In this document: positions 30,182-45,803 of the stretch, piece by piece | Layout of the letters: each line of letters begins with the position of its first letter | Position numbering within the stretch: position 1 is the stretch's first letter | Assembly (NCBI GenBank): GCA_964561525.1 | Contig: CAZLPY010000001.1 | Coordinates: 1 to 55,079, forward strand | DNA: 55,079 nt | Direction of reading: 5' to 3' | DNA from: an uncultured Candidatus Saccharibacteria bacterium | Lineage (GTDB): Bacteria; Patescibacteriota; UBA1384; CAJBMM01 | The notes under the pieces: generated by a model | The model's input: the letters and a program-made list of their open reading frames with translations, nothing else | Told to the model about the DNA's origin: nothing | Database searches by the model: none | Made by a program: the position numbers and the translations under genes

Positions 30182-30676
30182 CTATTCAGCGAGCTCTATA
30201 CCAAATCTTTGAATCTCTTCTTCCAGTTCAGCCTCATTATAGGGAGTCTGATCAGCAGTATGAGATTTTCGCATACCGAGTTCTAATTCTAGCTTTTGAA
30301 CATGCGCTTCTAAATTAATAACTCTATGGGCTTCTAAGAGTTTTCCAGCTAATAAGGCGATGGTGCTCGCTGTCTTAGTGTCGATGTCACCCTCTTGTGT
30401 GGCCATACGGACGCGATTAATTGTGTCGGCAAGTAAATTGATTACACTATGTCCATCGGTCAATTCTAAGGGCTCAAGACGGCAAACATAGTGCGCATGA
30501 GCTATGCGCCCACCTCTCGACTGTGCCAATTTCTTATCTGCATCGCTGATTTCAGGACTATGGAGATAGCAGTAATCAGCGCCTGTCATAGCATAGGCAT
30601 TACATTGTGAACCGTCTTCTTTGACATAACTACATTTCATAACATAACTCGAGTTACTTAGTGTTGACACCCACAT
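30182..30676 (-). CDS. hypothetical protein with an N-terminal Cys/His zinc-ribbon-like motif
   Basis: MKCSYVKEDGSQCNAYAMTGADYCYLH, followed by a helical C-terminus. The start may be the ATG at 30640. Confidence 0.5.
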   Translation of the reverse strand: MWVSTLSNSSYVMKCSYVKEDGSQCNAYAMTGADYCYLHSPEISDADKKLAQSRGGRIAHAHYVCRLEPLELTDGHSVINLLADTINRVRMATQEGDIDTKTASTIALLAGKLLEAHRVINLEAHVQKLELELGMRKSHTADQTPYNEAELEEEIQRFGIELAE

Positions 30677-30790
30677 TGTAAATGAATAGGATTGATTTAT
30701 AAATTATTAGGAGAGCTTGCCAAACACCTTTTGTCTCGAGTGCCGGTAAATTTTACCTAAACAAACACCGCCACTTGGTCAGGTGTTTTT

Positions 30791-30937
30791 GTGTCCAATA
30801 AAGGAAAAAAGCGAGACTCACTAGACGAGGCGACAGTTCATCAAGAGCTGGATGCTTGGGCTGATCTTATGATTGATTTCTATTTGAGCGAACACTATGA
30901 TCAAAATAGTGAGTGTAAGGAAAATCCAAATGGCTAA
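30791..30937 (+). CDS. small ORF (48 aa) overlapping the E1 recombinase start; candidate recombinase accessory protein
   Basis: GTG start after AGGTG. Translation: VSNKGKKRDSLDEATVHQELDAWADLMIDFYLSEHYDQNSECKENPNG. Its stop overlaps the recombinase ATG by 8 nt. The LMIDFYL segment resembles LLDCWL in the E2 counterpart (43812..44162). Confidence 0.4.
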   Translation: MSNKGKKRDSLDEATVHQELDAWADLMIDFYLSEHYDQNSECKENPNG

Positions 30938-32486
30938 TGCTGTAATTTATTGCCGCGTCTCAACGAACGAGCAAGTCGTAGAGGGTAGTAGTCTTATTAC
31001 CCAGCAGAAGGCGTGTGAGGATTATGCGGACAAGAATGGGTATATTATCGTCGAGCGGTTTATTGAAGAGGGAGAGAGCGCTAAAACGGCAAATAGACCT
31101 ACATTGAAGCAATTGCTGGATTATTGCCAACGAAACCATAAGCAAATTGAAGCGCTGATTATTCCTAAAATTGACCGCCTATCAAGGGATGCCTTAGACT
31201 ATGCTACTTTACGTGTTTTCTTTAAGAAGTTGGGTATAGCACTTATTTCCGTATCCGAACCTCTTTCAGATGACCCGACAGGGCGTTTTCTAGAGACGGT
31301 ATTGTCAGGTGCATCGCAGTTGGACAATGAGATACGGACGGAGCGAGCTACCGCAGGGATGAAACAAGCCGTGCAGGAAGGCCGCTATGTGTCAAAGGCA
31401 CCAGTCGGGTATAAAAACGTTGTTTTTAATGACAAAAAGAACATCGCTCCCGATAAAGGTAAGGCAAAATTTGTTGTCAAGGCATTTGAGATGGTGGCGA
31501 GCGGTAAGTATAGCGTTGAGGAGGTACGTCGAATTTTAGAAGCAGAAGGATTTAGAGGGTATAGAGAGGCGAAGATTTCGAAATCTAGCTTTGCTACCAT
31601 GTTACGCAAAAAGACTTATATTGGGCTCATTGAAGCATTTGGCTTAAATATTACTGGATCGTACCCATTTGTGCCGATTGTTGAAGTTGCTGTGTTTGAA
31701 AAGGCGCAGAGTGTATTGAGAAAAGAGCGAGCACCTAATGCATCGCGGTATTCTAAAGAAAACCCAGATTTCCCCCTACGCGGCATCGTAATGTGCCAGA
31801 ATGGTCATAAACTTACCGCAGCATGGTCAACTGGTCGTAATGCGAAGTACGCGTTGTACAGGTGCAATATATGCAAACGGAGTAGCAAACGTAAGCTTGA
31901 CCTTGAAAACGGATTCAAGGCGTACTTAGGTGAATTTGAATATAGCCAATTAGAAACCAAGGCCTTAGAGGCGCGTATCCATGCAAAATGGAATGAAAGG
32001 AATAAAGCAGCGATTGATCATAGAATGCAGTTAAACCTTGAAATTGATCTACTCAAGCAAGATCAAAAGATCTTAGCCAAAAAGGTTGTACAGGGTATTA
32101 TTCCTGATCGAGTTGGTAAAGAAGAAGCAGAGGAAATGGAGAATCGTATTGAAGAATTGCAGTCGACGCTATCTGAAATACCTCAAATCGAGGCTGAAGC
32201 AGACAAAGTAATTGAATATGCTACACAATTTTTAACAGGGATTGGGAATCGGTGGGAAAAAGTTGATCTTAAAGTAAAGCAGCGGTTCCAAAGCTTCGCT
32301 TTTCCTGAAGGTTTTACCTATTACGACAACGGAGAATTTGGAACCACCAAAATCCCGATCATTTTTAAGCAAAAAGCATCTATTTTGGGACAAAATTCTA
32401 GTGTGGTATGCCTGAGAGGACTTGAACCTCTGACCTTCGGCTCCGCAAGCCGACGCTCTATCCAACTGAGCTACAGGCACGAATGA
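30930..32486 (+). CDS. large serine recombinase (E1 integrase); the last ~25 codons read antisense through tRNA-Arg
   Basis: MANAVIYCRVSTNEQ (catalytic Ser), IDRLSRD, a recombinase domain, a zinc ribbon (CQNGHKL...YRCNICKRS) and a coiled-coil region. The ORF crosses the junction core at 32404..32411. Confidence 0.85.
   Translation: MANAVIYCRVSTNEQVVEGSSLITQQKACEDYADKNGYIIVERFIEEGESAKTANRPTLKQLLDYCQRNHKQIEALIIPKIDRLSRDALDYATLRVFFKKLGIALISVSEPLSDDPTGRFLETVLSGASQLDNEIRTERATAGMKQAVQEGRYVSKAPVGYKNVVFNDKKNIAPDKGKAKFVVKAFEMVASGKYSVEEVRRILEAEGFRGYREAKISKSSFATMLRKKTYIGLIEAFGLNITGSYPFVPIVEVAVFEKAQSVLRKERAPNASRYSKENPDFPLRGIVMCQNGHKLTAAWSTGRNAKYALYRCNICKRSSKRKLDLENGFKAYLGEFEYSQLETKALEARIHAKWNERNKAAIDHRMQLNLEIDLLKQDQKILAKKVVQGIIPDRVGKEEAEEMENRIEELQSTLSEIPQIEAEADKVIEYATQFLTGIGNRWEKVDLKVKQRFQSFAFPEGFTYYDNGEFGTTKIPIIFKQKASILGQNSSVVCLRGLEPLTFGSASRRSIQLSYRHE
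32404..32480 (-). tRNA. tRNA-Arg (anticodon GCG), CCA encoded
   Basis: Hand-folded. Acceptor GTGCCTG/CAGGCAT (G1-U72 wobble), D arm GCTC-AGTTGGATA-GAGC, anticodon stem TCGGC/GCCGA with loop TTGCGGA, and T arm AGAGG-TTCAAGT-CCTCT. Confidence 0.85.
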
Positions 32487-32634: not shown

Positions 32635-32652
32635 TGGCGGAGAGGGTGGGAT
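32635..32652. repeat. E2 left junction core (attL): copy of the last 18 nt of tRNA-Ser(GCU), one mismatch
   Basis: tggcggagagggTgggat here versus tggcggagagggAgggat at 45674..45691. Confidence 0.7.
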
Positions 32653-32722
32653 AAAACTTGAACACCTTTTGGAATGGCTAGACCAGTTACGGCTGGCCTA
32701 CTCTGAAGATTAACACTTCCGT

Positions 32723-33187
32723 TTATTTTTTCGCAAGGTTTCGGATGACCTCAATTTCTGAAATTATATTGTAAATTTTGATTTCTTTTCCAAGCGTATA
32801 TTCCTTAGACGAGAAACTGTCATTATTCTTTCGGGAAGGCTTTGGGTAACCAAGTTTATCCAATGTAAACAAGTCGACAACGCGATGGTATCTCTTGTTT
32901 TTAGTATTGGAGCTAATTAGGTATATATAATCACGGCCATTTTTCTTGTTGTCATCGGGATCCGTATCCGTCTTACCTTTTTCCTGAAAGTCTCTATTTG
33001 CGTCTTCGTAACACCGGCTAGCTTCATAGTCCCCAGGTCTTTTCTCTCTTTTAAAACAATACAAGGTGTATTTGTTCTGAAAAAAACGATACAAGGCAAT
33101 TGCAGCTAAAGTAACCAACAATAACCCTAGAGTATTTTGAGTTGTCCATTCAACAAATTCTTTTATTAAGGTGATATTTAACGTCAT
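32723..33187 (-). CDS. hypothetical membrane-anchored protein
   Basis: 154 aa, one N-terminal TM helix (LGLLLVTLAAIALYRFF), Lys/Asp-rich. It is very AT-rich with no clear SD sequence. Confidence 0.45.
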   Translation of the reverse strand: MTLNITLIKEFVEWTTQNTLGLLLVTLAAIALYRFFQNKYTLYCFKREKRPGDYEASRCYEDANRDFQEKGKTDTDPDDNKKNGRDYIYLISSNTKNKRYHRVVDLFTLDKLGYPKPSRKNNDSFSSKEYTLGKEIKIYNIISEIEVIRNLAKK

Positions 33188-33225
33188 GGTTTTCTATTTG
33201 GGCGCAGTCCAAATGGCGATAACTT

Positions 33226-33444
33226 TTAAAGAATATCGAACGACTTGAGCTTTAAGACTCTAATGACGTCATAAAGCTTATCAAGGGAAGGGTTTACTTC
33301 GCCACGTTCAATCTGAGAGTAATAACTCCCGTTCATACCTGCTTGGTCGGCGACCTCGTTTTGGGTCAGTCGAGCCTTTTCGCGAGCTGCTCGTAACTTT
33401 TCACCGAGCGCTTTACGCAGATGTTCGTTATTTTTGCTGGTCAT
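33226..33444 (-). CDS. XRE-family HTH transcriptional regulator
   Basis: LRAAREKARLTQNEVADQAGMNGSYYSQIERGEVNPSLDKL. TGGTATGAT (an extended -10-like sequence, 33453..33461) lies 8 nt upstream of the ATG, so the transcript could be leaderless. Confidence 0.75.
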   Translation of the reverse strand: MTSKNNEHLRKALGEKLRAAREKARLTQNEVADQAGMNGSYYSQIERGEVNPSLDKLYDVIRVLKLKSFDIL

Positions 33445-33492
33445 ACGCCGCTATCATACCAGATTCGGCGCAAAAGGTACAGGAGTGGGTAC

Positions 33493-34491
33493 TTACTCTT
33501 TCTCGATATTCTTTAGTACAAAATACCCATCTTCGCTATGAAGCCTAAGTTTGATCTCCGTATCCATCTTTATAATTCCTCTGCCCGGAGGGAAAAGCTC
33601 AATTTCTTTTTCCTCAAGTGCGATTGACGATACCATACCGAGCACTTGCGCATAGTCTGAAGGGTTGTAGGTATCAATTTCTCTCCAATTTTGGATTGCT
33701 TGAATTGGCTTGATAGGACCAGTAGTAACATTGGCAGAGCGTAGAGTTTTATTTCTTACATCGTAGATTCCGACTACTTCTTCAAGTTGTACCGCGCCTT
33801 CGCATGCTCTTGTTTTTACTTCGTAGTTAAAGGCTAAACGATCGGGGGTAAAAAGTTTACCATCCTTATCTACTATTTGAAATTCCGTAGGACTCTCTAT
33901 GGTGACAGTGTGAGTTCCTTTAAGATGGGGAAGAAGGCTGGAATTCCATGGCTCCTTGAATAGCTCGAGACAGCTTATTCTTTCTTCTCCAGTGTTATGA
34001 ATGAGCATGATTTGGTCTAGCGGCATACCTGAAAAGTCACCTCCGTTTGCATGAGCATCCAGCTCTATGCCCTCAACAAAGTAATCTACAAGTAAGGTTT
34101 TCTGGGAAACGGAGAATTTGACTTCCTCATCAGCCGAGTCAATAAGATGAAATAGTTGAATATTCTTATGATCTGCCCACTTCACTGCCCCTTGAGTGTA
34201 GTTAGAATTAGAGATGATGGCGCCCCGCTTCGTACCCAAATCTTCCAATTTCGAAATAAAGGCTTCAATCTCATGATCCCCGACGGTAACTTTCCAGTTC
34301 TTGCACTCTATTGCCAGGAAATCGAACTCTTCTGGACTAATAACTTGCAGATCCACCTCCCGACTATCGTTGGTAATCCGGCCCTTAATTTCCACCTTTG
34401 GTAGGACCTGAGTTTCAGGGGTAGATAGCCGCTTATATAACTGCTCAGCCTTATTCTGATAACGGTCACCTTTTTCTTGCGCTTTACTCAT
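33493..34491 (-). CDS. Mrr-like restriction endonuclease domain fused to an unknown C-terminal domain
   Basis: The N-terminal PD-(D/E)xK pattern matches the Mrr catalytic domain: EVDLQVISPEEFDFLAIECKNWKVTVGDHEIEAFISKLEDLGTKRGAIISNSNYTQGA. About 200 aa of beta-rich sequence follow, with no family I recognise. Confidence 0.6.
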   Translation of the reverse strand: MSKAQEKGDRYQNKAEQLYKRLSTPETQVLPKVEIKGRITNDSREVDLQVISPEEFDFLAIECKNWKVTVGDHEIEAFISKLEDLGTKRGAIISNSNYTQGAVKWADHKNIQLFHLIDSADEEVKFSVSQKTLLVDYFVEGIELDAHANGGDFSGMPLDQIMLIHNTGEERISCLELFKEPWNSSLLPHLKGTHTVTIESPTEFQIVDKDGKLFTPDRLAFNYEVKTRACEGAVQLEEVVGIYDVRNKTLRSANVTTGPIKPIQAIQNWREIDTYNPSDYAQVLGMVSSIALEEKEIELFPPGRGIIKMDTEIKLRLHSEDGYFVLKNIEKE

Positions 34492-34502
34492 GGTAAGCTT
34501 TG

Positions 34503-35786
34503 CTATTTCAACAAGTCATCAAGCGTACAAGACAATAGCGCAGACCGATTCAGGACAATCTGCTCTGCCTGGTTTAGATTTTCTGCAGTCATACGAATGA
34601 ATTTTGTCCGGATGGTATCACCGAGCACCACCCCGTTAGATTTCCGAAGGTAGTCCTCAGTTTTCTTGGCAAACAGTGTTGCGAACAGTTTGAGTTTATT
34701 TTCTGAAGCCGGACTGGTGGTAGTTCCATTCATTTTGATCTCAATAAGCTTGGTTACATCCTGATTCGGCTCACCCGGTAAATCATCTCCTCTGATCCAA
34801 AATTCGCTCATAGGGTATATAACACGGACACGAGCAGCAGGATCATCTTCGGTGAGGTACCAGAAGACAAAGGAGAAAACATCACTCATAACGTCATGAT
34901 GAATATCTACTTTCTCTAGTTTGGTAACCGTGTAGATCTGATACTCCTTCAGCAACCGCAAGTAGCTCTCTCGCCAGCTCTGCAGCCAGTGCTCAATGTA
35001 TGACCGATCGATAAAGAGCGGGAATAAGTCCTGTTCGAGGTTTTTGTTATTGACTTTATTCATCTGTAAAGTCAGCCGGTCAAAAAGAGCCCGGGGATCT
35101 TTTACGTCAACGTTCTTGGCAATTAAGTAATCGAGATCAGGCACAATTTTCTTACCCATATACCACAAGAGATCGTAAATATCCCGGCCTTTTTCTTCGT
35201 AGTTCTCTTTTCCAACTCCACGGGTTCCGCGCAAGAAAATGGCGGCAATTTTACTGGCCATGAGTGCGGACATGTTATAGGTAACGATCACAAAAGAAAG
35301 CTGGTCGTGGTTAATCGGTACCCGCTCGGTCGCCACTTTTGCTGCCACAAAATGATTAAGGTCGAGCTTTACATGCACCTGACTCGACGGATTACCGACG
35401 GCCAACTCCTCATTGACGTGAAATCGCAGCAGCAGGCCGCGTTCGCCCATTACTTTTACGGTCAAAAACTCCTCAGTTGCACTGTATTTATCCGCAAAAT
35501 AGGTTTCAATTTCCTGTTTCAGCTCATCGAGAAACGACCGATTAACCACCTCGGTCACTTCAAAATCCAAATCAACCGACATACGGTCTAGGCCGTGGCA
35601 AATCCGTAAGGCTGAGCCGCCATACATAATCCACTTGCTATACTCTGGGTGGTGATAGATAAAATTAAGCACATAAAACTGCAGCTCTTCTTTGAGAGCA
35701 TTGCGCCGAGTTTCGGCATCTAAATCGCTATAGCTACCCAGGCTATCCAGCTTTTTCTTAAGAATAGATAGAAGCATTTCACTCAT
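34503..35786 (-). CDS. AbiEii/AbiGii-family nucleotidyltransferase toxin with a long C-terminal extension
   Basis: MYGGSALRICHGLDRMSVDLDFEV is the typical AbiEii NTase motif. At 427 aa it is longer than I recall for typical family members (roughly 250-300 aa). It overlaps the AbiEi gene by 8 nt. Confidence 0.75.
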   Translation of the reverse strand: MSEMLLSILKKKLDSLGSYSDLDAETRRNALKEELQFYVLNFIYHHPEYSKWIMYGGSALRICHGLDRMSVDLDFEVTEVVNRSFLDELKQEIETYFADKYSATEEFLTVKVMGERGLLLRFHVNEELAVGNPSSQVHVKLDLNHFVAAKVATERVPINHDQLSFVIVTYNMSALMASKIAAIFLRGTRGVGKENYEEKGRDIYDLLWYMGKKIVPDLDYLIAKNVDVKDPRALFDRLTLQMNKVNNKNLEQDLFPLFIDRSYIEHWLQSWRESYLRLLKEYQIYTVTKLEKVDIHHDVMSDVFSFVFWYLTEDDPAARVRVIYPMSEFWIRGDDLPGEPNQDVTKLIEIKMNGTTTSPASENKLKLFATLFAKKTEDYLRKSNGVVLGDTIRTKFIRMTAENLNQAEQIVLNRSALLSCTLDDLLK

Positions 35787-36399
35787 GGCGCATGTACTCC
35801 TTTACTAACTGGTTAAATTTTTTCTGTTCGGTTTCAGGCATCTCATCAAAATCAATCCGCAGCTCTTCAATCAGTGGCTGAATTTCCTCGAACTGAATAC
35901 CGCGAAACCGGCTGGTACGAAAATAGAGCAAGTCAAACAGAGCTTTGGCTGGAGAAGCGATAAAGAAATCAAACTCTCCCGACACCAGCGAAAAATCAGT
36001 AAACAGTCTCTTATCTATTGACTGATAGCTAAACGTGCCAGCCTTTGTCTGATATTCCCGAGTGACCTTTGGGGTTATAGAGGTAATGCCGTAAATAGCT
36101 TCGGTGGCCAGATTGTAGTACTGCAGGGCTGCCCATGAGCTGACATAGGAAGGAGTACGGATAATATTAGCTAAATAAAACCGGTAGGCGTTATTACTCT
36201 TGTGTTTGCTATAAAAATCAGACGAGACGTACAAACCCTTTTTTAAGGGGATTATTTCCTTACCGCGCAAAAACCGGCTGATGTAGGTATCAACGCTAGC
36301 AGAGGTCAAGCCCAACTGTTCTCCAAGCTGACGAATAGTCTGCTTAGTGAAATGGGGTAGAGTCTCAAGTTGAGTTAAGAGGTTATTACTACTTTTCAT
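35779..36399 (-). CDS. AbiEi-family antitoxin/transcriptional regulator
   Basis: The N-terminal wHTH ends in IPLKKGLYV. It lies immediately upstream of, and overlaps, the AbiEii gene. Confidence 0.65.
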   Translation of the reverse strand: MKSSNNLLTQLETLPHFTKQTIRQLGEQLGLTSASVDTYISRFLRGKEIIPLKKGLYVSSDFYSKHKSNNAYRFYLANIIRTPSYVSSWAALQYYNLATEAIYGITSITPKVTREYQTKAGTFSYQSIDKRLFTDFSLVSGEFDFFIASPAKALFDLLYFRTSRFRGIQFEEIQPLIEELRIDFDEMPETEQKKFNQLVKEYMRHE

Positions 36400-36503
36400 A
36401 ATTATGACACTAATGTATCAAATGTGAAAAGTATTGTCAAGCCATTCTTAAACAATTCCTCATAACAGCTCAGCCTTCGGATGGAATTTTAATAGCCCGC
36501 CGG

Positions 36504-37880
36504 TTAGGGCGGGCTATTGGACGTGTCCTGAAGGAGCCTCTTAAGCTCCTCTTGAATTCGGACGCGAATGAAGCGAGGCAGTTTTGTAAGTTCTTCGTTA
36601 CCCACTGCCGGAGAGATGTGCGGGCGGACAAACGTATACCCGGAGGGCAACCACTCAAGCACACTGATCTCAGTTTCGGCCTCGAAGGCCAGAATGGCTT
36701 GGCGGTGCACTTCGGTCATATTCGCTCGCCGCTTGTGTCCTCTTACACGATGCGGAGTGCTAATCCGCGGATTTGCCAGAGGCGTCCTCGGTAAGACGGA
36801 CTGGCCGCTTCGAGAACTTCTGGGAATGTAAATCCAGCTGCTACCCTCACTTTCGGGCGGCCTGGTTGGTCCACCTGCTTCCGTCTCGTCCCCATTCCCA
36901 CGCCATATTGCTGTAGAAATCGGGATATCGACAGTAGTTACCAAATCGTGGTAGATCTGCACGGCGAGCCAATCAAAGAAGTCGATTGAGCCTCTGTCTT
37001 CATACTCCCGCTGAGAAGCATCAATCAAACTTGTGCTCCGAAGAGCGTCGTAGAGGTGAATGTACGACCCGCTGTCCAGCTCGATGCGGGCGAGAAGGTC
37101 ATGGGCGTTTGTATCCCAGATACTCCTCCTTGCTTTGAGAGTGACTGATGACACGCCAGGTAGTCCAGCGATTTTCACACAGGCACCCTCCGAGTCGACG
37201 GTGTACCGTTGGTTATAGTAGGCCGCCTCCATCAAGTCTTTGTTGCGAAGCGAGCTGGCTCTACCGCTCCACCTTTTATCCTGCAACACCGAGGCGTTAT
37301 GACAGTATTCGGGTTGTGGGATAAGGTCAACATCACTTTGGGCGATGTATTCTAGCGGCAGACTGTAGTAGTGAGCCAGTTCCACCAAGCGACGTGGTGA
37401 AGCCGGCTGAGATAGTTTTTTCCACGCGGGCTTGCTATAGCGAGTGCCGACCAGAGCCCGATATGGATCGCCGAGCAGAATCTGAATCATGGCAGTCACT
37501 TGGCTCATGATTGCTGACTGTTCGACGAGATTGTCGTAGAACTGCAGGTCCGAAGCAAAGTGCTTGAAGGCTGAAACGAGACTGTAGTAATTCTCTCGCT
37601 CGATCATCTTGACCAGGCCAACCACCTCGTCTCGGAATACCCGTTCGTAGGAAGGAGTAAGGTTGTCCGGATCGGAATCCGGGCCTACCTCGTTGGCTAA
37701 CGCCCCGTAGATTTGATACGCCCGGTTGACAACGTCTTGGTCACCTCTGGGCCTCAATGTGGGAGGCGCCTCATGAACCGTGATGCTGTCTGGCATTGGG
37801 CTTGCATACGCCCAGTTTTCACGCAGAGAATCCCATACCAAACCGGCGCAAACACGAATTACTCTTGGATCGCTCCACAT
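36504..37880 (-). CDS. hypothetical protein (458 aa), GC-richer cargo gene of E2
   Basis: AAGGAGAG lies upstream of the ATG. The C-terminal basic motif is STPHRVRGHKRRANMTEVHRQAILAFEAETEISVLEWLPSGYTFVRPH. I recognised no family. Its composition contrasts visibly with the AT-rich neighbours. Confidence 0.6.
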   Translation of the reverse strand: MWSDPRVIRVCAGLVWDSLRENWAYASPMPDSITVHEAPPTLRPRGDQDVVNRAYQIYGALANEVGPDSDPDNLTPSYERVFRDEVVGLVKMIERENYYSLVSAFKHFASDLQFYDNLVEQSAIMSQVTAMIQILLGDPYRALVGTRYSKPAWKKLSQPASPRRLVELAHYYSLPLEYIAQSDVDLIPQPEYCHNASVLQDKRWSGRASSLRNKDLMEAAYYNQRYTVDSEGACVKIAGLPGVSSVTLKARRSIWDTNAHDLLARIELDSGSYIHLYDALRSTSLIDASQREYEDRGSIDFFDWLAVQIYHDLVTTVDIPISTAIWRGNGDETEAGGPTRPPESEGSSWIYIPRSSRSGQSVLPRTPLANPRISTPHRVRGHKRRANMTEVHRQAILAFEAETEISVLEWLPSGYTFVRPHISPAVGNEELTKLPRFIRVRIQEELKRLLQDTSNSPP

Positions 37881-37904
37881 TGCTTATCTCTCCTTGTTAA
37901 GGTG

Positions 37905-37933
37905 TGTTTGCGAGAAAACATTTCTCACAAACA
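37905..37933. promoter_or_regulatory. candidate operator palindrome between divergent genes
   Basis: TGTTTGCGAGAAA-ACA-TTTCTCACAAACA. The arms are complementary at 12 of 13 positions. Confidence 0.35.
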
Positions 37934-38104
37934 ATCTGAGATCATAGCATATCCAGAGTAAATTGTCAAGTTCTGGTGGCTTCGCGCAGTCTTGATTACA
38001 CTTCTTCCCAAATCTCGTTCTGCACCTAGAAATTTCCTTCCTGATCTGGTATAAGTAAAAGACTCATCGTATTGATGAATCACTCGGTAAAAGGAGCTTA
38101 GATA

Positions 38105-38431
38105 ATGCGCGATTACGATCGAAAAACGCTCTCAGATATGATGGGCGTGGATTGGACTGCTGACGCAGTCAGCGGTGAGCCCGGTACATCAGCAATCTTT
38201 CGAGAGATAGTGACGGTGGTAGAACAAGTGATTCGAGAGGGTGCTCACAGCCTGATCAATGAGGGCCCCGTGCCGCTTGCCGAGCGAATTGTCTCTCATC
38301 TGGCTCGTACCTACCGCTTTTCGCCATCTCCGCTTGAAGTGACCACCGCTGAGCGAGAAAAAGACACGGTTATTGGCACATTTGTGTGGATTGGACGAGC
38401 ATATCATTTCACTGCAACACCTTCAAAGTGA
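38105..38431 (+). CDS. hypothetical protein (108 aa)
   Basis: AAAGGAG lies 7 nt upstream of the ATG, and a terminator follows. I recognised no family. Confidence 0.55.
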   Translation: MRDYDRKTLSDMMGVDWTADAVSGEPGTSAIFREIVTVVEQVIREGAHSLINEGPVPLAERIVSHLARTYRFSPSPLEVTTAEREKDTVIGTFVWIGRAYHFTATPSK

Positions 38432-38476
38432 GAATGTGCGATCCATCAAACGAATCAATCTCCACATCGGATTCTT

Positions 38477-38514
38477 GGGGTGACCACTGTGTATAGTGGT
38501 CACCCTTCTTCATT
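38477..38514 (+). terminator. rho-independent terminator, possibly bidirectional
   Basis: GGGGTGACCACT pairs with AGTGGTCACCC, followed by TTCTTCATT. Confidence 0.55.
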
Positions 38515-39296
38515 CAAATTTCTTCCCAAATCTCACTCATCACACCCTCTGCTTTCACCGACTCCTGAGTAGCAAACCAGAGCCGTAAATCATTCAACAC
38601 GTCATTCTCCTCTTTAAGTTTCTTCACATACCGTTTGGCATAAATAAGCGTGGGCTTGTCTGGACAAACAAATAGGAGAGTTGGAAAATCGTTCTGTGTC
38701 TCGGCCTCCCAGGTACCGCTTTCGGCAAACTCAACGTACTCGCGGATGCGTTTGCGGATAGAGTACTTGGGCAGGGTAGGCGAAAAAGCCTCGAGCAAAT
38801 ATGCCACTGCCTTCTTGCCTTTTTCTTTCACCAGAACCAGATTTGGCCGGAGCTCCGAGAGGAACTGGAACTTCGAGCCATCCATCAAGATTTGTGCCTC
38901 GGTGTGAACCCACCAGACGAGCGCGTGCTGGGTCTCATTTTCCGTAAACGATAGGGCAATATCTCCCAGCAGAACCCGCTGCTGGATAAAGGCGTCGCTT
39001 CGGGTATCCTCCTTGTAGCGCTTTCTTAACTCTGACCCTTCGATTCCTAGCGACTTCACATACCTGATGCCATTTGACCCAATATAGTAAATAGCCGGCT
39101 TGGTGTTCTCGCTAAACCCCCTGGAATAGATGCGTTTGAGATATTGTTTCTCGACTAGGTCAGGGAGCCAGATGTTGATAGTTTTCTTGTTTTTGTGGCG
39201 TAAAAAGGCTTGGATCTGAATGCGGTTGAGAAAGCGGTAATAGTAAATAAGGATAAGGATTGCCTGTTGTTGTTTGGTAATTGGTGGAAGGTTCAT
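38514..39296 (-). CDS. replication-relaxation family protein
   Basis: The N-terminal wHTH pattern ITKQQQAILILIYYYRFLNRIQIQAFL is typical of the Replic_Relax family. It is adjacent to the coupling-protein-like ATPase. Confidence 0.6.
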   Translation of the reverse strand: MNLPPITKQQQAILILIYYYRFLNRIQIQAFLRHKNKKTINIWLPDLVEKQYLKRIYSRGFSENTKPAIYYIGSNGIRYVKSLGIEGSELRKRYKEDTRSDAFIQQRVLLGDIALSFTENETQHALVWWVHTEAQILMDGSKFQFLSELRPNLVLVKEKGKKAVAYLLEAFSPTLPKYSIRKRIREYVEFAESGTWEAETQNDFPTLLFVCPDKPTLIYAKRYVKKLKEENDVLNDLRLWFATQESVKAEGVMSEIWEEI

Positions 39297-39438
39297 AAGG
39301 TGTCCGGTGTATGTGGTGGTATGTGGTGCTTTTTGCCAACCCCTCCTACTCCGATATAGTTAAGGGTAGGTGATACAATATTTTCATATCTGATCTGAAA
39401 CAGCAAGATATTTTGCCATCGCTCGTGATGGCAAAACT

Positions 39439-42330
39439 CTACCTCTTAATTCGCTGCTTTTTGGCCACTGTTTTCTTGAGTGTAGCCGGCTTTGCGGGGG
39501 TTGTTTGGCTAGCTCCAGATGAGCTTGTTGCAGTGAGTAGTTGACCCATCTGCTCCTCAATTAGTTCCCTTGGTGTGGCATAGTTTTTACGTGACTGGTC
39601 AATGATCTTTTCCGCCAGCTTGCTACTGCCCGGCTCAGAGATCGGAATGGTCTCCCCACTAAAACTGTCCTCGCTTACGCCGCTTGTTACTTTCATCAAG
39701 AACCGGTAGGGCGGCAGATTAACAATTTCGCCCTTTTCTACTTCTGGTTTCATGAACGGCAAGACAAAGGCTTCATCATCCGGGCCGGTTTTGAGGGAGA
39801 TTAAGGTACCGGCATTGCCAGAAATAACGCTGGTGATTTTACTGTCATCAATTTGGGCAATACTCTGGTGAGTAGGGATAAAGAAGACATGAAACTTGCG
39901 TGACTCAGAGAAGAGGCTGGTGAAGTGCGGCGTGGCAAAGTTCTGAAACTCGTCGATGTATACAAAGAAATCCTTGCGCTTCTCTTCCGGCATCCGAGCT
40001 CTGGCATAGGTGGCCAGTTGAATAAGAGAGACGATAACGGTGCCAAAGAAAGCGCTGCGCTCTTCTCCCAACTCTCCTTTGGAGAGGTTGACCAGCACAA
40101 TCTTGCCCTTATCCATTGCTTCGGCAATATTGACCGTACTCTCACTTTGCAACAGGATTCGTCTAGATAAAGGTGAAGTGAAGAACTCACCGAGCTTGTT
40201 CGTTAAGGGAGAGATAGCTTCAGCCTGCTGCATGGAGCCGAAGAGGGCAAATTCTTTGAGCCAGAATTGCTTGAGAATGGGGTCTTTGAGCCTAGTGGCA
40301 ACCTTCGTGCGATAGTTTTTGTCGGTTAGGAGCCGCTGCACGGTAAAGAGAGAAACATCTGGCTCATCCGAAGCCAAAGCTGTAAGCACTGCGTTTCTCA
40401 AAATATGCTCCATCCGCTGACCCCAGCGCTCTTTTGGGGTGATTTTCATAAACACCGACATCACAGAGCCAGTAATCCATTCATCCTCTTCCTCTTTGTC
40501 CGCAAAATGAATACCGGGATTAAGAATATTTAAGCCAACCGGAAAGTCTTTATCGGCTGGGTTAATGTAGATCACATCTTTGCGGCGGCTTTCTGGGATT
40601 AACGTCAGCAGCCTCTTCACCAAATCGCCATGTGGGTCAATCACTACCAACCCCTTGCCTTTGGCCATATCCTGCAAAGCCATTCCGGCAATGATGGTCG
40701 ATTTACCCATACCGGTCTTACCCACAATGTAGGTATGCTGGTGGCGCTGCTCGGCAGTTAAGCCAACGGGGATCTTCTCCCCACCATAGATATTCGTGCC
40801 TACTACGACATCCAACACATCTTCGTTACGCTTTTGCGAGAGCGGAGCCGGCAGGTCGCGGCTCTTAGCGGTAACCAGACCTTCCGTTTTGGTTGTTCCG
40901 GCGTAGGGGAAGTGGTAGAGATCGGTGAGTTCGGAGGGAGTAAGAATTAAATTAGTAAAGGTGGAGAGCCGGCGCTCAATAAACCGTGACCACAGAGGGG
41001 TAATGTCTGGAGAGATTTTCTTGAAGTCAAGCGATTGGTAGGGAGTCGCAAATAGCCCCACCGAGGCCATGAAGCCATGCAAGCGCTCACGTACCGTCTC
41101 TGAATCATTCCCAATAATAAGAAGTCTTGCAGAGGCTTCAAAAAGTGATTGGTCGATCTTTTCTTTTACTTGAGCTTGAAGATCGAGTTCGTAGGTATTA
41201 AGTTCCGGTCTAGGGGCTTTAGCGTAAGAAGAGGTAGATTTAATGTGGCTATCAAAGAGATGCCACCAGAGGTTAGCAAATAACTCGGCAGTCGCAGTCA
41301 GAATGCGCGTTACGACAATTAGGATAAACATTGGCACATCGATGGCTTGCTGCAGAGGAGTTTTAAATAATTCACTAGCTAATGGTTCAGCTTTAGCAAT
41401 CTTTCGCTTAATTCTCTCAAGGTGTTTGATTACTTTCCTGTGGCTGCGATTGACCGGTGAGACTACTACCTGAAAAGCCATTTGCTCACCTTTTTGTAGT
41501 TTGGTCATGTTGCCGGCAAGGTAAGCAATCGGGTCGTGTTCAGCGAGCGTCTTTTGAGTAGTGAGCGGCAGCACGAAGTCACTGGCCAATTTCAACTCAA
41601 CGATTCTTGCTTTCTGCTCATCTGCTTTCTTTTTCTCGAGCACATAGTCTTTCGCTGGTCGGATACTCAAGCCTGGGACATATGAGAGGAGACCTTTCTC
41701 AAGGATGTGCGCATCTACTTTCGGGACGGCAATGACGTATTTAATCCCGTGCTCGCGGGTAGCCACTAATTCAAGCGAATACCGCTTCTTATGCCCGAGG
41801 AACCGGTGCACGAAACTACGCTGGGCAGCTAAGGCATGCAGCAGGGTAAAAAATTGCTCAGTAGCATAGGCCGACTTGCTGGTGGAAGTAGGCACTGTGG
41901 CTTCTAAGAATACTAACGGCTCACGCCGTGCTAGCCGCAAGCGAATAAATTGCCGGGCAAAGAAGTAAATCAGCCAGAGAGCAATGAGGCCAAGCAGTAT
42001 AAAGATGACCGGGGTAATACTGAACTGGTATAGAAAGGCAAAAACCGCCAGCTTCCAGGAGAATGGCCCGGGAAAGAAGGCGGCGACAAAGATAAAGGTT
42101 TTTTGAAAGAAGGTAAGTGCCGTGTGATTATGTAGTGCCAACAAGAGGTCTCTGGCAAATTGGCCACCGGCATCGCTGTCCGGAAACGTCTTCGCAATTT
42201 TATCCAGCAACTCTGGTGTCAGCAGCGTGTAATCGATTGAAGATTTGAGGGGTTGGATTGGTGGGATTGAGCTGGGCACGACAAGCCCTTTCTCCCTCCG
42301 TTTATCGCCTGGCAGAAATAAGCTTTCCAA
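39439..42330 (-). CDS. type IV coupling protein-like / TraD-VirD4-FtsK-HerA-type membrane ATPase
   Basis: N-terminal TM helices, Walker A IVGKTGMGKST and Walker B FFVYIDEFQNF. The track ORF begins with TTG and there is no SD sequence, so the start is uncertain. Confidence 0.65.
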   Translation of the reverse strand: MESLFLPGDKRREKGLVVPSSIPPIQPLKSSIDYTLLTPELLDKIAKTFPDSDAGGQFARDLLLALHNHTALTFFQKTFIFVAAFFPGPFSWKLAVFAFLYQFSITPVIFILLGLIALWLIYFFARQFIRLRLARREPLVFLEATVPTSTSKSAYATEQFFTLLHALAAQRSFVHRFLGHKKRYSLELVATREHGIKYVIAVPKVDAHILEKGLLSYVPGLSIRPAKDYVLEKKKADEQKARIVELKLASDFVLPLTTQKTLAEHDPIAYLAGNMTKLQKGEQMAFQVVVSPVNRSHRKVIKHLERIKRKIAKAEPLASELFKTPLQQAIDVPMFILIVVTRILTATAELFANLWWHLFDSHIKSTSSYAKAPRPELNTYELDLQAQVKEKIDQSLFEASARLLIIGNDSETVRERLHGFMASVGLFATPYQSLDFKKISPDITPLWSRFIERRLSTFTNLILTPSELTDLYHFPYAGTTKTEGLVTAKSRDLPAPLSQKRNEDVLDVVVGTNIYGGEKIPVGLTAEQRHQHTYIVGKTGMGKSTIIAGMALQDMAKGKGLVVIDPHGDLVKRLLTLIPESRRKDVIYINPADKDFPVGLNILNPGIHFADKEEEDEWITGSVMSVFMKITPKERWGQRMEHILRNAVLTALASDEPDVSLFTVQRLLTDKNYRTKVATRLKDPILKQFWLKEFALFGSMQQAEAISPLTNKLGEFFTSPLSRRILLQSESTVNIAEAMDKGKIVLVNLSKGELGEERSAFFGTVIVSLIQLATYARARMPEEKRKDFFVYIDEFQNFATPHFTSLFSESRKFHVFFIPTHQSIAQIDDSKITSVISGNAGTLISLKTGPDDEAFVLPFMKPEVEKGEIVNLPPYRFLMKVTSGVSEDSFSGETIPISEPGSSKLAEKIIDQSRKNYATPRELIEEQMGQLLTATSSSGASQTTPAKPATLKKTVAKKQRIKR

Positions 42331-42415
42331 GCGTTATTTATGGCTCTGGTATATCAGATTTACAGATAAGGTGCAATCTAATACAAAAAGGTCATTTGGG
42401 AAGAGAGATAATTCT

Positions 42416-42451
42416 ATGAAAAAGGGCGACCACAAGACTAAGTGGTCGCCC
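42416..42451 (-). terminator. rho-independent terminator
   Basis: GGGCGACCAC pairs with GTGGTCGCCC. On the minus strand it is followed by TTTTTCAT. Confidence 0.6.
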
Positions 42452-42480
42452 GAAGGTCAACAATGCAACTTCCGCTCGAA

Positions 42481-42885
42481 TTACTCCGACGGTATCTCCA
42501 TGACGTGCCCCTTGTGATTGTGTGGTCGGCAGAAAAGCCGAATCCTCGGACTTTGGAAGCAGTACAGCCTGTTCGCATTCACCATCACCACACTTCCCTC
42601 AACGGTATAGGCATAATCTTCGGTGCGATCGACGCGGAACACCTGCACGCCCAGTCTGGTTTTCGGATTATCCTCGTGATTCCCGGGAATATCCTCGGAT
42701 TTATATTCGGTTTTCCGCCTAGAACTGATGGCGAAGTTTGCCAGATGGAGCATACTAGGTTCCGAGAAAGTTCCACTGGTCAATGATTGGCAAATCTCAA
42801 GCAGAGAAGGACAGCACTCAATTACATGCTGATCCGCCTCCAGGATGATCTTGCGACCTCGTCCGAAATCAAACACGAGTTCCAT
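42481..42885 (-). CDS. hypothetical protein (134 aa)
   Basis: GAGGAG lies 6 nt upstream of the ATG, and a minus-strand terminator lies downstream. I prefer this over the overlapping plus-strand ORF 42442..42786. Confidence 0.55.
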   Translation of the reverse strand: MELVFDFGRGRKIILEADQHVIECCPSLLEICQSLTSGTFSEPSMLHLANFAISSRRKTEYKSEDIPGNHEDNPKTRLGVQVFRVDRTEDYAYTVEGSVVMVNANRLYCFQSPRIRLFCRPHNHKGHVMEIPSE

Positions 42886-42930
42886 GTTAAGCTCCTCAGC
42901 TAGAATTAGCCCAATCAGGTGTCTCTGGAG

Positions 42931-43401
42931 TTATTCTCTCCATTGCACATCTTGCTTGGGCGGTGGCTCAGAGATAGACCCTGCTGCCACGGGGCGGGAG
43001 ATGAGGGGGAAATATCGTACTTTGCCTTCCTCTTCAAACCCTTCCACGCGACACCAGGAGAGAACAGCTTTCGCATCAATTTGGGCTCGCAGCTTCTCGA
43101 GGCTGTCCTCGAATAGTTCTAGAACCGTCTCGACATCACTTTCCGAGAAGCTACAATCGAGCGGATCCTGATACCACAGCCCCCAGGTGCCTGTGCCGTT
43201 CGGTCTACGGTTATTCACCCGCACAATCCAGTGGAGTTGGTCGGGCGGAAGATGAGCGAAGCAAGTGGGTCGTGCCAACCATCGGTATTGATGATCGTGG
43301 TTGACTGGCTGAGCCGCCAAGACGCGATTTGTTTCATGCGGATACCCTTCATCGGTCAGCTGAAAGAAGGGCAGAATATATTGGCCTAGAAATTGTCTCA
43401 C
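42931..43401 (-). CDS. hypothetical protein (156 aa)
   Basis: GTG start lies 6 nt after AAGGAG. I recognised no family. Confidence 0.55.
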   Translation of the reverse strand: MRQFLGQYILPFFQLTDEGYPHETNRVLAAQPVNHDHQYRWLARPTCFAHLPPDQLHWIVRVNNRRPNGTGTWGLWYQDPLDCSFSESDVETVLELFEDSLEKLRAQIDAKAVLSWCRVEGFEEEGKVRYFPLISRPVAAGSISEPPPKQDVQWRE

Positions 43402-43811
43402 CGTCTTCTCCTTCTGGGATGCTTATCCCAGATATGTTGCGTTGAGGCTCTTGAGATCCATCTGGTCGTAGATGATCACGCAATCCTCCAAAAACGGATG
43501 ATTGTAGGCTGTCTCTGTCTGGCCCTCCCTTTCAGGGGTTTCGAATTGTTAAATCAATGCGCCTCTCACCGAAGCGAGAAGTTGTTAAGTTATATCATTT
43601 ATCAGGTTAAATGTCAATATTTTAACCTCTGGAAGGAGCTTTTGAATCTCTTAAATAGCTCTTGTTTGATCGTATTCTCCTCGTTTTCCGACGAGCAGAT
43701 AAGAGGTATTTAAGAGGGTCGGAAGCGAGTGTTCACAGTTGGAAACCACCCTCTTGACATTATCATTATAACCATAATATACTATGGATATATCAATAAT
43801 AAGGAGAGTAT

Positions 43812-44162
43812 ATGAGCACTACTCAACTGTCATATTTGGGGCCGCAAACCGCCTTTAGCGCAGAGAATGATGGTGTTCGAACTGACTTCCAGAAGCCTGC
43901 CAAACCGGACACTTTTAAAGACCTGGTAATTGACGCGGCTCGTACTTCCGATGCCTTTCGTTCGATTATTCCCACAGCCCAGGAAGAAGGCCGCATTGCT
44001 AAAACCAGGCGGGTGATGGGGGATGACGTGAAAGACCTGTCTGACGAGCAACTTGAGGTATTTCTGACTGAATTCAATTTTCTGCTTGACTGCTGGCTCG
44101 ACCAGTACGAGCAGGAAGTGTTTGACGGCAAAACTTTACAACAAATCTTGCGGGAGGGCTAA
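43812..44162 (+). CDS. hypothetical protein (116 aa) abutting the E2 recombinase; candidate accessory/directionality factor
   Basis: AAGGAGAG lies upstream of the ATG. The stop TAA abuts the recombinase ATG (TAAATG). The C-terminus LSDEQLEVFLTEFNFLLDCWLDQYEQE resembles the E1 small ORF. Confidence 0.6.
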   Translation: MSTTQLSYLGPQTAFSAENDGVRTDFQKPAKPDTFKDLVIDAARTSDAFRSIIPTAQEEGRIAKTRRVMGDDVKDLSDEQLEVFLTEFNFLLDCWLDQYEQEVFDGKTLQQILREG

Positions 44163-45803
44163 ATGGACGCACTGGGGTTAGCAAACCTGAAAGGGCAGGA
44201 AAAAGCAGTGGTATATATCCGGGTCTCCACTGAGGAGCAGGTGGAAAACTACTCGCTCGATACCCAAGCCGAAATCTGCACCAAAGAAGCCCAGAAGCGC
44301 AATATGCAGGTACTGCACGTATTTCGAGAGGAAGGAAGGTCAGCCAAGACCATCACCAAGCGTCCGATTCTCGTTGAGATGCTGGAGTTCTGCCGCAAAC
44401 ACAAGAAAGAGGTAGATGCGGTGATCGTCTATAGGTTAGATAGGGTATCACGGCAGACCACCGATTATCTCACCATTCGCAAAAAGCTCTCCGAATACGA
44501 GATTAAACTGATCTCCGCCACTGAACCAACCGGCAACAGTCCGACTGAGAAGTTTATTGAGACCATGTTGGCTGGGTTTGCTCAGATGGATAACGACGTG
44601 CGGGGTGAGCGCAGCCGCAACGGCCTCCGAGCTCGCTTTATGAATGGCTTGTGCAGTTATGTTACTCACGGCTACTTAAATCAGCATGGCTATATCGGGA
44701 AAGACCCGGAGAGTTTTGAGCAATTCAAGCAGGCCTGGGAGTTACTGGGAACGGGCACGAAAACGCTGCGGGAGATTGGAGATCTTCTTTACGACCAGGG
44801 TGTGCGGCAGAAGAAAAAGGGCGGCAAACTCCTGCCTCAGACCTTAAACCGCATTTTCCGCAATAAGTTTTATACCGGCGTGGTGGTCTCCAAGAAATAC
44901 GCTATGGAGGTCAAGGGGCAGCATCCAGCCATGATTACCGAGGAGCTGTTTTACCGCGTTCAAGCGATTCTTGACGGCCGCAACGTCAACTTGAAGCCGT
45001 CACTGACTAGACGAAGAAAAGATAACGCTGAGTTCCCGCTACGCCGAATTATCAAATGTGCCGCCTGTGGCTCCTCCTATTCGGGGGCCTGGAGCCAGGG
45101 CAAGCGCTCTCGCTATGCTTACTATTTCTGTGCCAAACGCTGCACAGAGTGCGGCTCCAAAGGTGTGGATGAGATGCAGCAAGAAGCGTACAAGGAGCTG
45201 GTAAAGATCAAAATTAACCCTAAGGCCATCACCCTCTTTAACGCTTGGCTGCGCCAGAAATACTTCCAGCGCATCAGCGACCTGCAGAAACGGCTAGACG
45301 ATGCCGATGAGGAGCTCAAGAGCCTCTATGAGCTGCGCCAAACCCTTATTGAGAAGAATCTGAAGGGTATTTATTCGGACGAGATCTTTAAGGAGCAGAA
45401 CCGCCATATTGAAGGTAAAATAAAAAATATCCAGTTCACCAAAAATGACGAGGTACTGGACAAGTACAACCTGGAAAAAATTACTACATTCGTCGAAATA
45501 AAACTCTCAGATGTGCCCCTAACCTTCTCACATTCAACGCTCAATGAGGTTAGGGTACTGCTGTGTTCAATATTCCCAGAAGGCATGCCATATGGTCGAA
45601 ATGGCTTTGTGAACACGCCGCCCAGCCCGTTTTATCAGGTTTTTCTGGGCTTTCCGCATACGGCTATCCCTTCTGGCGGAGAGGGAGGGATTCGAACCCT
45701 CGCTACGTACAAAGTACGTACTACAGGTTTAGCAAACCCGCCCCTTGAGCCACTTGGGTACCTCTCCATGCTTCGAATATTTTATCACGTAACAGTCAAT
45801 TGA
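44163..45803 (+). CDS. large serine recombinase (E2 integrase); the last ~40 codons read antisense through tRNA-Ser
   Basis: KAVVYIRVSTEEQ (catalytic Ser), LDRVSRQ, a zinc ribbon (CAACGSSYSG...YFCAKRCTECGS) and a coiled coil. It is homologous to the E1 recombinase. Confidence 0.85.
   Translation: MDALGLANLKGQEKAVVYIRVSTEEQVENYSLDTQAEICTKEAQKRNMQVLHVFREEGRSAKTITKRPILVEMLEFCRKHKKEVDAVIVYRLDRVSRQTTDYLTIRKKLSEYEIKLISATEPTGNSPTEKFIETMLAGFAQMDNDVRGERSRNGLRARFMNGLCSYVTHGYLNQHGYIGKDPESFEQFKQAWELLGTGTKTLREIGDLLYDQGVRQKKKGGKLLPQTLNRIFRNKFYTGVVVSKKYAMEVKGQHPAMITEELFYRVQAILDGRNVNLKPSLTRRRKDNAEFPLRRIIKCAACGSSYSGAWSQGKRSRYAYYFCAKRCTECGSKGVDEMQQEAYKELVKIKINPKAITLFNAWLRQKYFQRISDLQKRLDDADEELKSLYELRQTLIEKNLKGIYSDEIFKEQNRHIEGKIKNIQFTKNDEVLDKYNLEKITTFVEIKLSDVPLTFSHSTLNEVRVLLCSIFPEGMPYGRNGFVNTPPSPFYQVFLGFPHTAIPSGGEGGIRTLATYKVRTTGLANPPLEPLGYLSMLRIFYHVTVN
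45674..45767 (-). tRNA. tRNA-Ser (anticodon GCU), CCA encoded
   Basis: Hand-folded. Acceptor GGAGAGG/CCTCTCC, anticodon stem CGGGT/ACCTG with loop TTGCTAA, a long variable arm, and T arm GAGGG-TTCGAAT-CCCTC. Confidence 0.85.

Follow-up and report, generated by a model that had tools for sequence, protein, structure and literature searches.

Why does the gene of a large serine recombinase (LSR) run in antisense through an intact tRNA gene, and which C-terminus would the enzyme carry when its element is out of the chromosome? The question is raised by E2, an element near the end of a 55,079-nucleotide stretch of DNA from an uncultured Candidatus Saccharibacteria bacterium (assembly GCA_964561525.1, contig CAZLPY010000001.1; the whole stretch is called the window). 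An earlier note, made from the sequence of the window, had proposed that the open reading frame (ORF) of the recombinase passes through tRNA-Ser(GCU) and acquires a different C-terminus in the circular form. Based on the analysis reported here, the best explanation as a whole, to which we assign a rough probability of 0.8, is that E2 is an integrative element with its attachment site (attP) inside the 3' end of the recombinase gene (int), that integration exchanges the tail of the enzyme, and that the tail encoded in the excised state has a role in that state. The features needed for this reading are the following.

32635..45691, + strand: element E2, about 13.0 kb, bounded by the attachment sites attL and attR, a direct repeat of 17/18 nt with a spacing of 13039
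44163..45803, + strand: LSR gene, ORF of the integrated state, 546 aa
45674..45767, - strand: tRNA-Ser(GCU), intact (ARAGORN), with the acceptor and T arm as the B' half of the attachment site
45674..45691, + strand: attR identity block TGGCGGAGAGGGAGGGAT, which is the tRNA 3' end and encodes S-GGEGG-I of the E2 ORF
32635..32652, + strand: attL identity block TGGCGGAGAGGGTGGGAT
32636..32713, + strand: orphan tail segment, read in the circular form as GGEGGIKLEHLLEWLDQLRLAYSED and then TAA at 32711-32713

The ORF call and ARAGORN both confirm the antisense passage through tRNA-Ser(GCU). The last 43 codons of the recombinase gene include about 31 that are antisense to the tRNA and 11 more past the tRNA 5' end, and the integrated-state ORF ends as ...HTAIPSGGEGG IRTLATYKVRTTGLANPPLEPLGYLSMLRIFYHVTVN-stop. 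The attL and attR blocks are identical at 17 of 18 positions, the first 12 nt being exact, and this number of matches was not reached in any of 100 shuffles of the window. Because the single mismatch breaks T-stem pairing in the 32635 copy only, the 45674 copy belongs to the working tRNA. The element is flanked on the left by the tRNA-Arg spacer and on the right by tRNA-Ser and host genes. When its two ends are joined in the frame of the ORF, the recombinase C-terminus becomes ...SGGEGGIKLEHLLEWLDQLRLAYSED-stop in a predicted protein of 529 aa, and reading from 32636 reproduces the proposed tail with its stop at 32711..32713. The core at 45674-45685 lies 43 codons before the integrated-state stop and about 25 codons before the reconstructed one; the predicted attP junction would read …CCCTTCTGGCGGAGAGGGTGGGATAAAACTTGAAC… and the predicted empty attB …GTCGATGGCGGAGAGGGAGGGATTCGAACC…. 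As a separate observation, the sole other near match to the block in the window (17/18) is the 3' end of a tRNA-Ser(UGA) gene (22234-22251; + strand gene at 22162-22251), an unoccupied site in the window that E2-type elements might use as a secondary target.

The same overlap is found throughout the clade of the E2 recombinase. A protein search returned about 1000 homologues, most of them with a C-terminus carrying G-[I/T/S]-R-T, a translation in one reading frame of the antisense T-loop GGnATTCGAACC, and many of the ORFs end within the T-loop itself (…ERT-stop, …GGWI-stop). A genome scan with one genome per species gave 80 loci, nearly all labelled Patescibacteria (Berkelbacteria, Saccharibacteria, CPR2, Microgenomates and others), together with a few metagenome-assembled genomes bearing other labels. 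The recombinase ORF overlaps an antisense tRNA gene in 68 of the 80, most of the remaining loci stopping at contig edges, which gives 69 sites with the window. The tRNAs hit are of 12 amino-acid types (Ser, Glu, Leu, Met, Pro, Ala, Gln, Arg, Gly, Lys, Phe and Tyr), and all 69 sites share one frame, in which TGG (antisense CCA) supplies the third base of an F or S codon and the first two bases of a G codon, a conserved 'FG'. Even at the 11 of 69 target tRNAs that do not encode CCA (L029, L044, L056, L063, L065, L067, L069, L070, L074, L076 and L080) the recombinase keeps its frame with respect to the T-loop, the 'FG' codons being altered to fit. Clade members thus sit with their 3' end inside tRNA genes, as the earlier note had suggested checking, and the pattern that it had named as contrary to its proposal, a tRNA-overlapping tail conserved as protein at other tRNAs, is not what is seen: the tails follow the tRNA that was hit (...GIRTRDLL..., ...GTLTRGLVLGKDAL, ...ERT-stop), with the antisense T-loop as their sole common feature. 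Where the T-loop is TTCAAGT or similar, as in many tRNA-Leu, the antisense strand reads ACT TGA and the ORF stops four to five residues past the crossover (…GADERT-stop, at loci that include L022, L040, L049-L051, L077 and L080). Integrated tails therefore range from clean truncation to extension (4 to about 100 residues), and they are often hydrophobic.

These counts bear on the simplest alternative, an artefact of ORF calling in which the real gene ends before the tRNA and the repeat at 32635 arose by chance. An open frame of about 25 codons would by itself have roughly a one-in-three chance, but there is no stop before the tRNA in the E2 ORF or at the 68 related loci, the frame is identical in all of them, the repeat count is unmatched in shuffles and the tail is conserved at 39 sites, as described below. 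This alternative is almost certainly wrong.

The position of the T-loop also gives a view of how the attachment sites would be recognized. Two further features are needed.

32657..32663, + strand: T-loop-like motif CTTGAAC of the P' arm, with GAAC at +26..+29, a position 5 bp more distal than that of the tRNA motif; it encodes L-E-(H)
45691..45697, + strand: antisense T-loop TTCGAAC in tRNA-Ser(GCU), with GAAC at +21..+24 from the T of TGG; proposed zinc-ribbon-domain (ZD) motif of the attB B' half-site

In the LSR class, strand exchange is a 2-bp staggered crossover at a central dinucleotide, and excision requires a separate recombination directionality factor (RDF). The P' arms of the E2 clade have the consensus TGCcCTtGA.gCACTTt.aTTCGAACACCTTTTgg..TGG, and the tRNA (B') arms TgC.g..ga.gGGA.TCGAACCc. 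Relative to the T of TGG, the GAAC motif occupies +26..29 in 13 P' arms, whereas 69 tRNA B' arms have it at +21..24, a spacing that matches the shift of the ZD motif between attP and attB in this class, as for LI integrase, where the motif is 5 bp further inward in attB than in attP (PMC3783163). The identity between attL and attR extends over 12 nt in E2 and over 6-8 nt in relatives, and in L037 attL and attR do not agree at positions 1-2. Assuming a conserved geometry, the crossover would fall at about positions 3-6 of TGG(C/T)G(C/G), which correspond to C74, the discriminator base and the upper end of the acceptor stem. The 12/18-nt core proposed earlier is then a real repeat, but its 12-nt block is not the crossover itself. 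Given this position, the tRNA would stay almost wholly host-derived and the element would replace its 3' trailer.

Tandem accretion of related elements at one tRNA gene is indicated at several loci, which have at least two P'-type sites or two recombinases in series into one tRNA: L002 (11500-11560 and 21134-21220), L051 (1961 and 5179), L039, L104, L118 and L159. At L002, a recombinase reads in frame into the left end of a second element, itself ending in tRNA-Leu, which is a natural P-core-P' junction. At L084 (1383-1519; the same in L085-L087), the tail is fused in frame to a relic of about 66 nt from the 3' end of an older recombinase, reading …NTQISPFYRCFMDINDGKVGIGALERLSFEHLLSELDHIAKVFNSKVDQ-stop, and L223 has a P' site at 2846 with a 17-nt remnant of a tRNA 3' end 53 nt before it (at 2793).

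The E2 enzyme is a large serine recombinase and shows every feature of the class that can be tested in its sequence. PF00239 (Resolvase) matches residues 15-162 (E = 9.6e-33), PF07508 (Recombinase) matches with E = 5e-12, and PF13408 (Zn_ribbon_recom) reaches 24.7 bits, slightly below the 25.3 cut-off; the catalytic motif of Y18, R20, V21 and S22 is invariant across 29 homologues. A sequence search of the Protein Data Bank retrieved the TP901-1 catalytic domain and, over residues 215-431, the C-terminal domain of A118 integrase. The AlphaFold2 model has a mean predicted local distance difference test (pLDDT) score of 78.6 when built with an alignment (the single-sequence model, with 37, is not usable), and Foldseek searches with it found the SPbeta, Bxb1, phiC31 and LI integrases at E values of 3e-20 to 1e-11 (2.9e-20 for SPbeta, and on the order of 1e-20 to 1e-14 for the SPbeta, Bxb1 and phiC31 enzymes). 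The model is folded to about residue 495, with long helices at 353-426; residues 500-511, which span the crossover (…AIPSGGEGGIK…), are disordered, and residues 512-527, from the circular-form tail, form a single low-confidence helix. The alignment holds 39 sequences and has almost no depth over the tail, so that the model says little on docking. According to the model, integration would cut in a linker, and the catalytic, recombinase, zinc-ribbon and coiled-coil domains would all stay in one ORF. Only the residues after about 505 are exchanged, and the gene is not split into two inactive halves.

This last point weighs on the possibility that the exchange is disabling, as in the archaeal 'suicidal' integrases: the tRNA-tailed or truncated integrated form could not excise, and mobility would need an intact recombinase provided in trans when a related element arrives. 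The location of attP in the enzyme's own gene, as in SSV-type integrases (PMC8371274), would agree with it, and so would the tandem arrays, along with decayed remnants, at shared tRNA targets (L002, L051, L084 and L223), which suggest repeated arrivals and poor departure, and the absence of an excised E2-clade form among the metagenome contigs. Nonetheless, just a tail of about 25-35 residues past the last folded element is replaced, with the catalytic and DNA-binding domains left in one ORF, and the integrated genes are intact and highly conserved over hundreds of loci, which is unexpected for a dead gene. We consider a disabling swap improbable.

If the tail is exchanged and the enzyme stays whole, the orphan segment at the far end of the element should show what the lost C-terminus is. 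Orphan tails were collected at 39 non-redundant attL-type sites, located upstream of recombinases and on metagenome contigs found by the P' DNA motif; tRNA-end repeats of 8-9 nt upstream of int are mostly chance, and only sites with the P' signature were kept. Each site has an unrelated flank, often with in-frame stops, followed by TGG, a conserved stretch, an in-frame tail and a stop. The consensus of the tails is G-A-L-D-x-L-x-F-E-H-L-L-x-W-L-D-Q-L-x-x-A-F-[DE]-x-S, and in 30 of the 39 the frame runs on for 24 codons or more. Where one contig contains both ends of an element, the element is 5.5-13 kb long. The closest relative, L223, has a recombinase 75% identical to that of E2, lies likewise in tRNA-Ser(GCU) and has the tail GGLDGIIFEHLLEWLDQLRLAFEE-stop. 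Its tail and the consensus shared by the 39 sites support the earlier suggestion that the circular-form tail is the ancestral, homologous C-terminus. Tail ends are acidic or Ser-rich and of variable length (…AYSED, …AFEESNSS, …FDSSNDTEKQV), and none of the 39 has an ssrA-like ...LAA end.

The two halves of the tail differ in the kind of constraint. Between E2 and L223, codons 13-24 carry 7.5 synonymous and 3.5 non-synonymous changes, with a synonymous divergence (pS) of 1.02 and a non-synonymous divergence (pN) of 0.12, whereas in codons 2-12 pS is just 0.13. Codons 9-11 (GAA CAC CTT) are nearly invariant across sites, third positions included, and codons 5-6 likewise at all three positions. 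The proximal tail, which is the P' arm, is thus constrained as DNA, and part of the tail conservation (codons 5-12) reflects attP and not protein selection. For the distal tail, 65 moderately close pairs give a pN/pS of 0.38, and over codons 15-24 of all long tails the value is 0.71 for the tail's own frame and 0.96 and 1.11 for the two off-frame readings. Moreover, entropy is greater at the third codon position than at the other two (p = 0.005 and 0.04), most of the codons for Leu are used to maintain Leu15 and Leu18, and the tail segments have no alternative frame on either strand that is consistently open. These patterns show that the distal tail is translated and under purifying selection at the protein level. 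The selected tail has no upstream gene when the element is integrated, and the one reading that explains this is its translation as the recombinase C-terminus on an excised or tandem form.

Independent information comes from the neighboring element and its clade.

27540..32486, + strand: element E1, about 4.9 kb, directly upstream of E2

The E1 recombinase (30897..32486) is 29% identical to that of E2 and runs antisense into tRNA-Arg(GCG) at 32404-32480. An 8-nt core, TGGTATGC, is found again at 27540 as attL, and the size of about 4.9 kb follows because host-type genes (ROK, HAD) lie left of that position. An orphan tail at 27539-27649 is in frame, …EPPDLWNQIALELRELSQIFGFENSRLLEHAYS-stop, and the reconstructed E1 tail, …DLWNQIALELRELSQIFGFENSRLLEHAYS-stop, matches tails that are contiguous in homologues from the database. 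When the E1 recombinase was searched against the full library, 144 full-length representatives were obtained. At least 75 of these end in G-[FLIV]-E-P, the antisense T-loop in a different frame, and others have contiguous native tails like the E1 reconstruction, for example …ENWNQIIEEVRAFSNL and …LRLYEIFQHENSF. The earlier claim that two elements share one arrangement therefore extends to both clades. P0256, of the E1 clade, is found on an 8,044-bp contig that has a 30-nt terminal direct repeat and no tRNA; in L226, an 8,044-bp Logan contig, the recombinase ORF (904-2466) reads through the aTGGcg core into a native tail, …NMATLIIENWNQIIEEVRAFSNLKPAMVAC-stop. The 8,044-bp contig is a circular assembly and a direct sighting of the read-through form in the E1 clade.

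A comparison of the tails of both clades is informative about their nature. The likeness of the tail ends that had been noticed earlier (LLEHAYS in E1, LRLAYSED in E2) is not in homologous register, but the tail profiles do align elsewhere (P = 1.8e-4), pairing EHLLEWLDQLRLAYSED of E2 with NQIALELRELSQIFGFENS of E1, the DNA registers being 1 nt apart. Both clades have the P' GAAC at +26..29, and it is translated to E-H in the tails of the E2 clade and to W-N in those of the E1 clade.

This brings in compact packing, by which attP would merely overlap the int 3' end and the tail, having no protein function, would be conserved via P' DNA binding and a chance open frame. The different readings of the same GAAC agree with such an arrangement, as do the near-invariance of codons 5-6 and 9-11 at all three positions, the low pS of codons 2-12 against L223, and the early stops, divergent distal ends and undocked model helix described below. 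However, the conservation reaches about 30-40 nt past a normal half-site of about 25 bp and has coding character there (pS 1.02, pN 0.12). In addition, the use of most Leu codons for Leu15 and Leu18, the entropy of the third position and the lack of a consistently open alternative frame argue for a peptide, and the tails of the E1 and E2 clades align as peptides despite the 1-nt difference in DNA register. Packing with no protein function is an unlikely explanation, even if it is the least improbable of the rivals to the preferred reading.

The preferred reading, that the excised state encodes a functional tail, can then be formulated as a sequence of steps. In it, the anatomy, its conservation in the clade and both kinds of constraint on the tail are shown by the sequences, and the function of the tail is inferred. 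The element's own LSR inserts E2 at the extreme 3' end of tRNA-Ser(GCU), with attP inside the last codons of int. The P arm encodes ...FLGFPHTAIPSG, the crossover would fall in the antisense CCA, discriminator and acceptor top (TGGCGG), and the P' arm with about 40 further bases encodes the real C-terminus, GGEGGIKLEHLLEWLDQLRLAYSED. On the host side, the B' half-site would be the acceptor and T arm of the tRNA, with the near-universal T-loop as ZD motif and the P' GAAC placed 5 bp further from the center. The use of the T-loop as half-site motif would explain how one clade has spread over tRNA genes of twelve amino-acid types. Integration swaps a conserved amphipathic helix with an acidic, Ser-rich end for antisense-tRNA residues or a stop in the T-loop. 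Since the tail exists on the excised form only, its function would be specific to that state. Most likely, the tail helps or licenses integration (attP x attB) or prevents re-excision, and the form of the enzyme would report the state of the element. In addition, int is transcribed towards an active tRNA gene, and this convergence may lower its expression when the element is integrated.

Setting enzyme levels is another possible role of the tail. In a stability switch, either the one or the other C-terminus would act as a degradation tag and make the level of recombinase depend on integration state. The precedent is the repressor of mycobacteriophage BPs, with a 33-residue difference and an ssrA-like tag (PMC4557955), and the integrated tails are indeed arbitrary and often hydrophobic. 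Against it, the conserved tails end in acidic or Ser-rich residues, none of them in ...LAA, and the integrated tails, of 4 to about 100 residues, have no common feature. A tag of this kind appears quite improbable, more so than a disabling swap.

For the preferred reading, a more specific form can be proposed that involves a further gene.

43812..44162, + strand: small ORF of 116 aa that abuts the int start (TAAATG); candidate accessory or directionality factor

A conserved upstream small ORF (93-116 aa) with a W[LFIM][DENQ] motif was recovered at 80 of the recombinase loci examined, an alignment being made of five such ORFs, and it has no match to a Pfam or PHROG family. Its motif FQyLiDsWLDeyEkq resembles FEHLLxWLDQL of the tail (hhalign P = 5.6e-4). 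In a directionality switch, the helix of the excised form (FEHLLxWLDQL) would dock in cis on the zinc-ribbon/coiled-coil surface, in the place of a directionality factor, and commit the enzyme to integration; once the helix is lost on integration and the surface is free, the upstream small protein could bind there in trans and allow excision. This particular mechanism is speculative, and we regard it as doubtful. If it were true, the enzyme would sense its own integration state through the structure of its own gene.

Several observations weigh against the reading that we prefer. No excised or circular E2-clade molecule was found, the approximately 22 true P'-motif sites in metagenomes being all of attL type. 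The tails have a stop before codon 24 at 9 of the 39 sites, and several lose the consensus past W-L; over all sequences the selection signal is modest (pN/pS 0.71), and it is strong in closer pairs only. In the AlphaFold2 model, the tail helix is of low confidence and undocked anywhere. The P arm contains no convincing mirror of the P' motif, and the exact crossover dinucleotide is bounded by sequence only to about positions 3-6.

With respect to the search for excised forms, a profile of the reconstructed C-terminus run against the protein database matched short fragments only, but the word index seems to favor short proteins for short queries, and the result is uninformative on full-length forms. 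IMG/VR holds a single close relative, and these elements are not recognised as viruses. Two candidates for a circular form were rejected: the non-tRNA tail of P0119 corresponds to a tandem array, and the ORF of P0003 runs through tRNA-Ser(GCU). A divergent, hydrophobic tail that is not tRNA-derived was also observed in P0060, on a 2.8-kb contig.

The remaining genes of E2 comprise a backbone and a cargo.

38514..39296, - strand: Replic_Relax protein, element backbone
39439..42330, - strand: TrwB/TraG-like, HerA/DUF87 ATPase, 963 aa
33493..35786, - strand: cargo, with a Mrr/NERD nuclease (33493-34491) and an AbiEii toxin (34503-35786)

A Replic_Relax gene adjoins int in L002, L003 and L223 as well. 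The TrwB/HerA-type ATPase likely has a DNA-transfer function. In L228, a relative from the E1 clade, the cargo at 4808-14761 comprises SMODS/S_4TM, AAA_15 and a type I restriction-modification system. Small elements of the E2 and E1 types may be a vehicle for defence genes in Patescibacteria.

Patescibacteria have small genomes, and their mobile elements have been little studied. The E2 type is a common type of mobile element in this group, with hundreds of related elements sharing the arrangement. There is also a consequence for annotation: the deposited proteins end in antisense-tRNA residues, and the true C-terminus is kilobases off at the other end of the element. How serine integrases set the direction of recombination is an active question, and the two isoforms described here match the two substrates (attP x attB and attL x attR), which would make them a natural system for the study of directionality. 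Moreover, tRNA 3' ends are conserved and present in every genome, which gives enzymes that target them an interest for recombinase-based genome engineering.

Compared with the phage-type LSRs (A118/LI, SPbeta SprA, Bxb1, phiC31 and TP901-1), the E2 enzyme has the same order of resolvase domain, recombinase domain and zinc ribbon with a coiled-coil insert, and its clade has the same short attachment sites with little attP/attB identity (a shared core of 6-12 nt) and the 5-bp shift of the motif. However, the E2 clade targets the 3' ends of many tRNA isoacceptors, with the T-loop as half-site motif, and attP lies in the last codons of the enzyme itself, so that the C-terminus changes on integration. 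Also, the hosts of the E2 clade are Patescibacteria, and the elements are plasmid-like islands of 5-13 kb and not phages. For phiC31, the extreme C-terminus of the integrase is located at the RDF-binding surface of the zinc-ribbon domain, and an RDF fused there (Int-gp3) switches the direction of recombination (bioRxiv 10.1101/2025.05.02.651858). A natural C-terminal appendage would plausibly be well placed to influence direction, although in E2 it is a natural helix of about 20 residues, whereas the artificial Int-gp3 fusion carries a whole RDF.

A protein C-terminus coupled to integration state is also known from the integration-dependent immunity of mycobacteriophage BPs, where attP lies in the repressor gene, the prophage and viral C-termini differ by 33 residues and an ssrA-like tag is removed (PMC4557955). 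In that case the repressor is affected and the integrase is a tyrosine recombinase, whereas in E2 the recombinase itself is affected and its tail has no ssrA-like end. In the literature, we found no serine integrase with attP in its own 3' end and no tRNA-targeting serine integrases in Patescibacteria; this coverage is incomplete, and an earlier report is possible. A further parallel is with the archaeal SSV-type integrases (SSV1, pTN3, pT26-2), tyrosine recombinases with attP within the gene and a tRNA target in an 'all in one' module, and self-disrupting recombinases have been reviewed as exclusive to Archaea (PMC8371274). E2 shares with them an attP in its own gene, a tRNA target and gene parts at opposite ends of the element. 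Nonetheless, the SSV-type enzymes belong to Phage_integr_3 and are left as dead halves, whereas E2 encodes a serine recombinase in a bacterial host and exchanges a tail of about 25-35 residues. Among bacterial serine recombinases, the E2 arrangement would be the counterpart of the archaeal integrases whose gene contains attP, in a milder form that leaves the enzyme intact, and it would extend self-altering recombinases to bacteria and to an unrelated family, the serine recombinases.

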